Made by a program: the position numbers and the translations under genes
Assembly (NCBI GenBank): GCA_977020255.1
Contig: CDROCS010000275.1
Span: 186,001-250,000, forward strand
DNA: 64,000 nucleotides
Direction: 5' to 3'
DNA from: Obrimoposthia wandeli
Taxonomy: Eukaryota
Shown: in pieces, positions 60,494-61,440 of the stretch
Numbering within the stretch: the first letter of the stretch is position 1
Layout: each line of letters starts with the position of its first letter
Notes under the pieces: model-generated
What the model was told of the DNA's origin: nothing
What the model saw: only the letters and a program-made list of their open reading frames with translations
The model's database searches: none

Positions 60494-61440
60494 ATCCGAC
60501 ACATTGCACCACAAGAGATACTGGAAGAAGACGAAGAGATCATAGTCGTTTTCGAAAGAACACAACCAACATATGTGGCAAAAGAAGTCATTGTGAAAGA
60601 TGCACTAACAAATGAATTTCTATGCGAACTTAGAGTGTCATACTACGATGGAAATACACTAGTCGCAGAACTACACCAAAACTCCAATGTGTTTACGACT
60701 GAGAAAGTGATAATAGAAATCACATTGACACCAAACATAGTTGCATGGCAGAACTATGACAGTACCGAAGCAGGACTAGCCAGTCAGGAAGAAAAAGAAC
60801 CGGCCAGTGGTCACATACTTCATGGTACACCAAAAAGACTTAAACAAGAATACCACGATGTGATAATGGTATTACGTAATTCACATGGGAGAAGAGACAT
60901 AATGAGAGTTCATTTAATCGACGCTGACACTGAAAAGATAATCTGTCAGATGGACACTAAATACTTTGATGGAAAGACCATTGTATGTAGTATACCGGAA
61001 TCTCACCAATTAAACACAGGTCAAACGGAAGTATCTGTAAGGTTGAGCGTAATAGAAGGATTTCATTCGCCAACCCAACCGGAAGTCACAAACAATAAAA
61101 TCATTAAAGCAACGGCAGAGTTACGCATTGACAGCGGATACCGGAAGTGGGAAGCAAAAAATAAACCACACAGAATCAATGTGATCTCAATCCAACCAAA
61201 ATATCATGCTGAAATAGTATCATCCGCGCCAAGTGTGATTACATCGATAAACGACGAAATTATAATTTTACTAAAAAATCGATGGCCGTCATCAACTGAG
61301 ATACGAGTCAATTTAATTAATTATGCGAAAACACCGATATCTAAGCTGAATGTCACCTATTTTGATGGATTGTCCATCATGGGTAAATTGGAAACAATTG
61401 TCATGTGCTATGGAGCACAGTTCCAAGTTGAGATACTTAA
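60494..61440 (+). other. Three tandem ~90 aa repeats, IPT/TIG (Ig-fold)-like
   Basis: IRHIAP..EEIIVV...YYDGNTLV; ILHGTP..DVIMVL...YFDGKTIVCSIP...GQTEVSV; IVSSAP..DEIIILL...YFDGLSIM. Confidence 0.6.

Follow-up and report, generated by a model that had tools for sequence, protein, structure and literature searches.

Three TIG-like units and a phosphatase pair lie downstream of the integrase in the polyprotein of a Burro-like giant Ty3/gypsy element

The window (the whole stretch of 64,000 nucleotides that was analysed) holds a broken copy of a giant Ty3/gypsy element whose polyprotein continues past the integrase into three similar units and then into a dual-specificity phosphatase (DSP) and a pseudophosphatase. 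The GPY motif, the units, and the DSP share one frame in sister copies, which makes the units internal parts of a single polyprotein and not an integrase tail. A TIG-type beta-sandwich is predicted for the middle unit, and within the literature searched this post-integrase cargo block of TIG-fold units and a DSP pair is new to a Burro-like layout. We favor, at a probability of roughly 40%, the reading that the units are released as protein-interaction cargo that acts on host signaling.

Architecture of the element

In sister copies, the polyprotein is up to about 5,500 residues long and runs from Gag through candidate ubiquitin-like (Ubl) and Bcl-2-like stretches to Env, then through a protease, BIR, RING, and another protease to reverse transcriptase (RT), RNase H, and integrase, and finally through the three units, the phosphatase, and the pseudophosphatase to a membrane region. 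The Ty3/gypsy hallmarks are present in the form of the PR-RT-RNase H-IN order and the GPY module, with TG...CA LTRs, a primer-binding site (PBS), and a target-site duplication found in sister copies, the LTRs of the window copy being rearranged.

Window features were located on the forward strand, with a Pfam scan of 16 frames from 49490 to 64000. Of the family 5' LTR, only the final ~360 bp remain in the window copy, at 48100..48462 (start approximate) with CAACA at the end, and a PBS-like sequence starting TGG (48471..48487) follows 8 nt past the LTR end; most sister copies have the same sequence there. The gag region (49490..50997) is broken in the window copy and has one CCHC zinc knuckle (about 50755-50799; zf-CCHC E 1.6e-6). 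Two weak matches under the Pfam cut-off follow, a ubiquitin-like domain (51686..51850; E 0.0085) and a Bcl-2-like stretch (52767..52940; PF00452 E 0.13); a sequence search of solved structures with the latter returned no Bcl-2 structure. Between gag and pol lies Env, a Monjiviricetes-type fusion glycoprotein (53076..55002), which is split over three frames in the window copy and scores E 1.3e-96 in an unbroken sister copy.

Pfam matches then identify a first aspartic protease with a DTG motif (55276..55545), a BIR (inhibitor of apoptosis) domain (55849..55998; two matching stretches in a sister copy), a C3HC4 RING finger (56675..56806) in an IAP-like pairing with the BIR, and a second DTG aspartic protease (56933..57196), so that each polyprotein has two aspartic protease domains flanking BIR and RING. 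The RT and RNase H (57860..58912) have a stop within RNase H in the window copy, and the integrase (59240..60301, start approximate), comprising an H2C2 finger, core, GPY motif (60194-60208), and SH3-like end, has two. Beyond the units and phosphatases, the start of a C-terminal region with several hydrophobic segments (62859..64000, extending past the window) has no Pfam match and is frameshifted in the window copy.

Nine sister copies were chosen for their long frames, and in eight of them GPY, units, and phosphatase lie in a single frame. Two copies have frames of 4,633 and 4,645 aa that extend from gag to the first hydrophobic segment past the DSP pair, one reads through 2,455 aa between RT and the end of the polyprotein, with ~1,300 residues past unit 3, and longer frames of 4,985 and 5,478 aa are known by length alone. 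A search of the assembly with the units gave 14,421 candidates, a figure that is not a copy number; all 126 that were scored match at 96-100%, so at least 126 copies carry units, and copies of the element in the genome likely number in the thousands. Searches for the Env and DSP families had only members of the same element family among their 30 best loci (87-96% nucleotide identity). The family LTR has the form TGTT...CAACA and is about 1.8-2.4 kb, the distance from LTR end to LTR end is 20.7-23.4 kb (five copies), and the whole element is about 23-25 kb; eight sister copies were compared for target duplications, which are 4 bp in all four that were readable at both ends.

The window copy differs from this family structure at both ends, where a block of ~5 kb (98.8-100% identical; window 42920-48100 and the continuation of the contig) stands before the LTR remnant. 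This block is without counterpart in the nine sister copies and stands in place of ~1.7 kb of 3' internal sequence and the greater part of the LTR; it looks like the product either of 5' flank copying or of a capture into the LTR. Reading the window copy as having a 5.5-kb LTR was rejected, the block being private to it.

Several other features were observed in the window and assembly. Inverted pieces of the element LTR end at 5404-5671 and 10545-10579 are probably remnants of other insertions. The segment 41200-44578 has inverted repeat arms (41200-41454 and 44328-44578, 94-96%) enclosing a 341-aa innexin frame on the minus strand (41494-42516; Pfam E 1.4e-58) and is possibly a DNA transposon carrying a piece of a host gene. 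Further decayed transposons occupy 16108-17142, 25383-26430, and 38526-40073, namely a hAT-like frame with a BED finger, a MULE transposase, and another LTR element that has RNase H. Multi-copy COX1 on two element-bearing contigs (C109 and C652) reads AAA as Asn, AGR as Ser, and ATA as Ile (table 9, flatworm/echinoderm). A second COX1 (contig C5352) reads ATA as Met and therefore points to DNA of another animal in the assembly, which also includes many bacterial contigs.

The three-unit repeat and its reading frame

An open reading frame on the forward strand (59846-61510, 554 aa) comprises the end of the integrase with its GPY motif (YKGPY) and continues stop-free into three units of ~90 residues, located at 60488..60763 (unit 1), 60809..61075 (unit 2), and 61205..61486 (unit 3). 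Their Y[YF]DG motifs fall at 60641, 60962, and 61358. Local alignment windows for unit pairs, anchored on the common motif, scored 86, 56, and 54, values matched by 0, 2, and 1 of 5000 shuffles. Identity to unit 2 is 21% for unit 1 and 24% for unit 3, and seven columns are invariant across the three (I3, P8, I19, V34, Y52, D54, and G55). Judged from sequence, the three-unit repeat is real and old, and the frame and shuffle test bear out the observation of an earlier note that the integrase frame runs without a stop into three similar units. The units are neutral to acidic and none is basic (pI 4.3, 7.2, and 6.9 for units 1-3), with one or two cysteines each, and a linker of about 60-64 residues separates unit 1 from the SH3-like end of the integrase. 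The block measures 948 nt in the window copy, 18 nt shorter than the 966 nt of nearly all sister copies.

The same note had described the units as a terminal extension of the integrase, which does not hold beyond the window copy. The stop at 61508 that ends the 554-aa frame is a sense codon in 56/56 covering copies (58 loci examined, with locus L096 left out), and past it the frame runs on into two phosphatase domains and ~1,000 further residues. The window stop at 62045 is likewise sense in 56/56 covering copies, as are the integrase stops at 59312 and 59843 in 29/29 covering copies each.

Relatives of the units were sought by filtered sequence searches, which may miss distant ones. None was found among 1,334 candidates of 188-601 aa in a protein database, nor among 1,829 candidates of 166-2,000 aa with the three-unit alignment, nor by sequence search of metagenome and viral contigs. 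Sequence comparison of the units with solved structures gave nothing in one search and three unrelated rows in another, and a Pfam match to APD1-4_M on unit 1 (E 0.003) was weak and under the cut-off. Among sequencing runs listed as containing the element, none was of RNA, and one marine metagenome run contained short pieces of it at low depth, with most of the units uncovered.

Host TIG genes were considered as donors. The assembly has one gene (contig C74), which we take from its sequence to be NFAT-like, with an IPT domain split over two exons and the sole RHD_dimer match; another TIG locus is presumably Sec5-like. A unit profile run against 806 frames from 25 loci, these two genes included, had its best score (E 0.12) in an unrelated frame, and a DBB family search had no match anywhere, controls included. 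TIG matches in long assembly frames were considered as sister elements and rejected as bacterial genes.

Predicted fold of the units

An AlphaFold2 model of unit 2 (89 residues), built on an alignment stack of 27 rows that combines the three units of several copies, is all-beta with pLDDT 75.8 and pTM 0.67, as against pLDDT 34.9 for the three-unit block folded from a single sequence. The top four Foldseek rows for this model are all the DBB/TIG domain of BCAP (E 0.010-0.052, TM 0.60-0.62), with no match at E < 0.001. Comparison with 48,161 chains by VIA gave a best Z score of 6.9 and none reaching 8 (best 6.9-7.0 over all structure comparisons, which agree), and Z < 8 may reflect a common arrangement. 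Among the top 20 VIA rows, 13 are MET, plexin, NF-kB, BCAP, EBF, or NFAT5 entries tied within 1 Z, the matched ranges of MET, plexin, and NF-kB presumably being their IPT domains. Matches to unit 2 also include bacterial TIG domains and non-TIG Ig folds (CopC, pullulanase, and S-layer domains). In the ESM Atlas, all 30 named hits of unit 2 carry PF01833, the best at 0.93 (0.89 for the whole block), with recognition (2046) and shared features (165) under the tool's marks.

The predicted unit 2 model thus resembles IPT/TIG domains (PF01833; BCAP DBB, EBF, NF-kB/NFAT, and MET/plexin) in being an all-beta E-set Ig sandwich of ~85 residues that superposes on TIG structures with Z 6-7, TM about 0.6, and rmsd 2.6-3.3 Å over 70-80 residues, and the units share with these domains an I-x4-P start. 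They differ from them in having only 8-19% identity and a Y[YF]DG motif of their own, in matching none of the Pfam TIG, RHD_dimer, and DBB families (PF01833, PF16179, and PF14545) at E 0.1 or 1, and in occurring as three tandem copies in a retroelement polyprotein with no adjoining DNA-binding domain. The C-terminal helices that stabilize BCAP and EBF dimers are absent from the unit 2 model. A viral structure library had no match under E 0.06, and unit 2 modeled as a homodimer scored 0.01 in a run that did not use the alignment, a value that carries no weight either way.

From these comparisons, we regard a TIG-type fold as probable for unit 2, and units 1 and 3 would share it by homology; the model-based evidence for the fold of the units is middling. 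The proposed check by AlphaFold and Foldseek returned, for unit 2, an Ig/TIG-like beta-sandwich at TM about 0.6, and the IPT/TIG assignment survives at the level of fold, with the structural comparisons and the Atlas in agreement. What does not survive is a tie to the TIG domains of transcription factors in particular: the domains of Rel, NFAT, EBF, and CAMTA score level with those of BCAP, MET, plexin, and bacterial TIG proteins and indicate no transcription-factor origin in particular.

Selection on the units

Variants were classed against the commonest codon of each column, with two-copy variants dropped from both classes, in 30 copies chosen by DSP score for the units and DSP; the integrase was covered only in another set of 29. 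Variants present in at least three of the 30 copies numbered 14 synonymous, 4 nonsynonymous, and 1 stop in unit 1, 15, 8, and 0 in unit 2, and 15, 5, and 0 in unit 3. The corresponding pN/pS values are 0.12, 0.16, and 0.11 (p 4e-6 to 2e-5), under a simple selection model in which recurrent synonymous changes may inflate the effect, and singletons have pN/pS of 0.46-0.68. For comparison, pN/pS is 0.13 in the DSP, 0.22 in the acidic linker that follows unit 3, and 0.02-0.03 in the integrase (other copy set). In the lineages that spread, the units are hence translated and under constraint, at a level close to that of the DSP and only a little above that of the linker. Since the linker is constrained too, some of the signal would be expected of any translated polyprotein; with selection maintaining it in so abundant a family, the block is probably of importance for spread.

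These values bear on whether the units are TIG domains by descent at all. They could be a generic beta-sandwich, or a passenger kept merely by being in frame, as the missing sequence match to the TIG family or a host gene, the Z scores below 8, and the constraint on the linkers would allow. We consider this quite improbable, given that the model and the language-model search both indicate TIG, that the motif pattern is kept across three units at about 22% identity, and that the pN/pS of the units departs from neutrality.

The phosphatase pair

The first phosphatase (61934..62317, forward strand) is a Pfam DSP domain with an intact HCxxGxxR motif and one stop in the window copy. The second DSP domain (62400..62860, limits approximate, forward strand) has no catalytic cysteine and is strongly constrained, more so than the active DSP (pN/pS 0.03 vs. 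0.13). Its catalytic cysteine is absent from all 46 copies in which the motif was found (59 examined). Among 29 copies chosen for the similarity of their units, the active DSP has an intact motif in 21, and in the remaining 8 the motif was not found. The best DSP homologs are cellular DSPs at 30-43% identity, several of which have an N-terminal rhodanese domain (PF00581) that is absent from the element.

This absence suggests one possible use for the units, which stand directly ahead of the DSP pair in one frame: released together with it, they could bring the active DSP to its substrate or dimerize it, in place of the rhodanese-type docking domain of MAP-kinase phosphatases. The frequent retention of the catalytic motif in unit-bearing copies is in keeping with such an arm. 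A linker of 140 acidic residues separates unit 3 from the DSP pair, however, and the second-ranking protease-like site of the polyprotein (below) falls right after unit 3, which makes this arrangement distinctly unlikely in our estimate.

Candidate protease sites and insertion sites

A protease-site matrix was built from four canonical pol borders, with training sites chosen by our own pattern, and applied to about 4,630 windows of a sister copy. The two best non-training windows bracket the unit block, rank 1 falling after the SH3-like end of the integrase and rank 2 right after unit 3; the fifth rank is another site in the integrase-unit 1 linker and the twelfth lies between units 2 and 3. 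On the forward strand of the window, the predicted sites correspond to 60359..60427 (ranks 1 and 5) and 61478..61501 (rank 2). The 64-residue linker thus contains two of the top 12 non-training windows, where 0.17 would be expected (p 0.011, post hoc). Leave-one-out ranks of the matrix are 29-657 of 4,634 and high-ranking windows also occur within RT and both phosphatase domains, and we take the bracketing sites as a weak hint of cleavage. A KMLRG/RMLRG motif is found past protease 1 and again ahead of the DSP, and cut sites of a second class may be marked by it.

As the first domains in frame past the GPY motif and SH3-like end, the units occupy the position in which a chromodomain is sought (PMC5408684). 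Chromoviruses among the Ty3/gypsy elements similarly have an extra folded domain in frame after GPY, whereas in the present element the extra domains are internal, triplicated, followed by ~1,300 residues, and possibly cut off, and Pfam has no chromodomain match after GPY. If they stayed joined, the units could steer the intasome to chromatin through DNA or host TIG factors, as the earlier note proposed, and the Rel, NFAT, and EBF domains among the tied structural matches, together with the weakness of the cleavage prediction, leave room for this. The candidate linker sites speak against it, as do the absence of any basic unit and the constraint on the units, which is lower than that on the integrase (0.11-0.16 vs. 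0.02-0.03, in different copy sets).

Insertion sites give no sign of such steering either. Thirty LTR-end loci were reduced to 22 by dropping the window's own, five with a PBS following, one duplicate, and one that lacks the end motif. None of the 22 right flanks contains a tRNA gene, and only 6 of 231 flank pairs share any sequence, none of them at the junction. The only bias is short and local: the two middle positions of the duplication are A/T in 39 of 44 cases (p 0.002), an A stands two bases past the duplication in 18 of 22 flanks, and a T occupies the mirror position in four of four left flanks (read by eye). Short local bias of this kind is intrinsic to integrase according to the accessible part of PMC8149907. 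The proposed check for insertion-site bias thus found no common target, and strict integration targeting is unlikely, a statement that for these 22 flanks bears on junction sequence and not on the chromatin level. A chromodomain-like role keeps the in-frame position after GPY in its favor, but is weakened by the internal position of the units, the downstream phosphatases, the (weak) candidate protease sites, and the lack of a common target, and we judge it unlikely.

Comparison with known elements

By layout and description, the element is a Burro-like giant Ty3/gypsy element. We liken it to Burro rather than call it a member because it is under 30 kb and no RT tree is at hand. As described in the accessible part of PMC6431247, Burro/GYPSM1 elements of dugesiid planarians encode one polyprotein of ~5,000 residues (4,900-5,100; 4,633-5,478 aa in the frames of our element) and have very many copies, and the host of the present element is likely a flatworm too, as we infer. 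That description and our element have in common a CCHC-knuckle Gag, in-frame mononegavirus-type Env, and BIR, followed by PR-RT-RH-IN; the candidate Ubl and Bcl-2-like stretches before Env, with weak Pfam scores, stand in the Burro order.

Against the same description, the element differs in its TIG-fold units, in the DSP and pseudo-DSP after the integrase, and in having two proteases, a C3HC4 RING beside the BIR, and one knuckle, and its total length with LTRs of the size given above falls short of Burro, which exceeds 30 kb. In the stretches scanned, Pfam matched neither ankyrin repeats nor MATH/TRAF domains, and a spacer of about 100 residues between PR and RT, where Burro has a dUTPase-like domain, gave no match. 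The Burro domains in PMC6431247 came from HHpred-level searches, and MATH can be a separate ORF there; section 7 of that paper, on Burro, names no TIG or phosphatase domain, and the accessible part of PMC11410931 holds nothing further on domains. The literature searched, with subscription papers and Repbase largely outside it, reports no TIG or DSP domain in an LTR-retrotransposon polyprotein.

Possible role of the units

We suggest that a single TIG domain was captured and then triplicated, and long ago, because the units are only 21-24% identical and have no recognizable donor. Cutting by an element protease at sites past the SH3-like end of the integrase and past unit 3 would free the units, which would then be cytosolic or nuclear, there being no clear hydrophobic or membrane segment between Env and the neutral to acidic units. 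Once free, they may offer a TIG dimerization sheet to host TIG proteins, such as the product of the NFAT-like gene in the genome, or to signaling adaptors, and would dampen host signaling alongside the BIR-RING, Bcl-2-like, and phosphatase cargo. The TIG domain of BCAP offers a precedent, being described in the accessible part of PMC7128310 as a cytosolic dimerization module that does not bind DNA and dampens TLR signaling.

A purely structural role would place the units as Ig-like spacers or adaptors that help to package the products of the polyprotein or link them to its C-terminal membrane region. In MET, plexins, and bacterial surface proteins, all among the tied best matches, tandem TIG arrays serve as structural spacers, and besides Env the polyprotein has four more hydrophobic segments downstream of the units. 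No signal peptide or membrane segment puts the units outside the cell, however, they have only one or two cysteines each, and the neighboring accessory domains are regulatory; we hold a role of this kind, without signaling, to be very unlikely.

The idea, raised in the earlier note, that the units are decoys of immune transcription factors would fit the regulatory cargo of BIR, RING, Bcl-2-like, and phosphatase domains. Burro elements also combine apoptosis and ubiquitin cargo in one polyprotein, and in PMC6431247 their meddling with host apoptosis and ubiquitination is put forward as a proposal.

Large DNA viruses have host-modulator kits of similar content, such as IAP and PTP in baculoviruses and VH1 and Bcl-2-like proteins in poxviruses. 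The element resembles them in carrying BIR and RING, Bcl-2-like, and dual-specificity phosphatase functions together and, unlike them, has these functions, as known from sequence, as domains of one retroelement polyprotein. At its most specific, and more tentatively, the proposal would be that an Env-bearing giant element carries a kit in the style of large DNA viruses: an IAP, a Bcl-2 mimic, a phosphatase with pseudophosphatase, and a triple TIG decoy trapping Rel/NFAT/EBF- or BCAP-type dimerization surfaces.

The second cargo block after the integrase consists of pieces that can each be expressed and assayed alone. Should the units stay on the integrase, they would represent targeting domains of a new type. 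If the decoy proposal is true, they would be the first TIG-domain decoy from a retroelement, and retroelements would target the dimerization surfaces of signaling proteins as large DNA viruses do.
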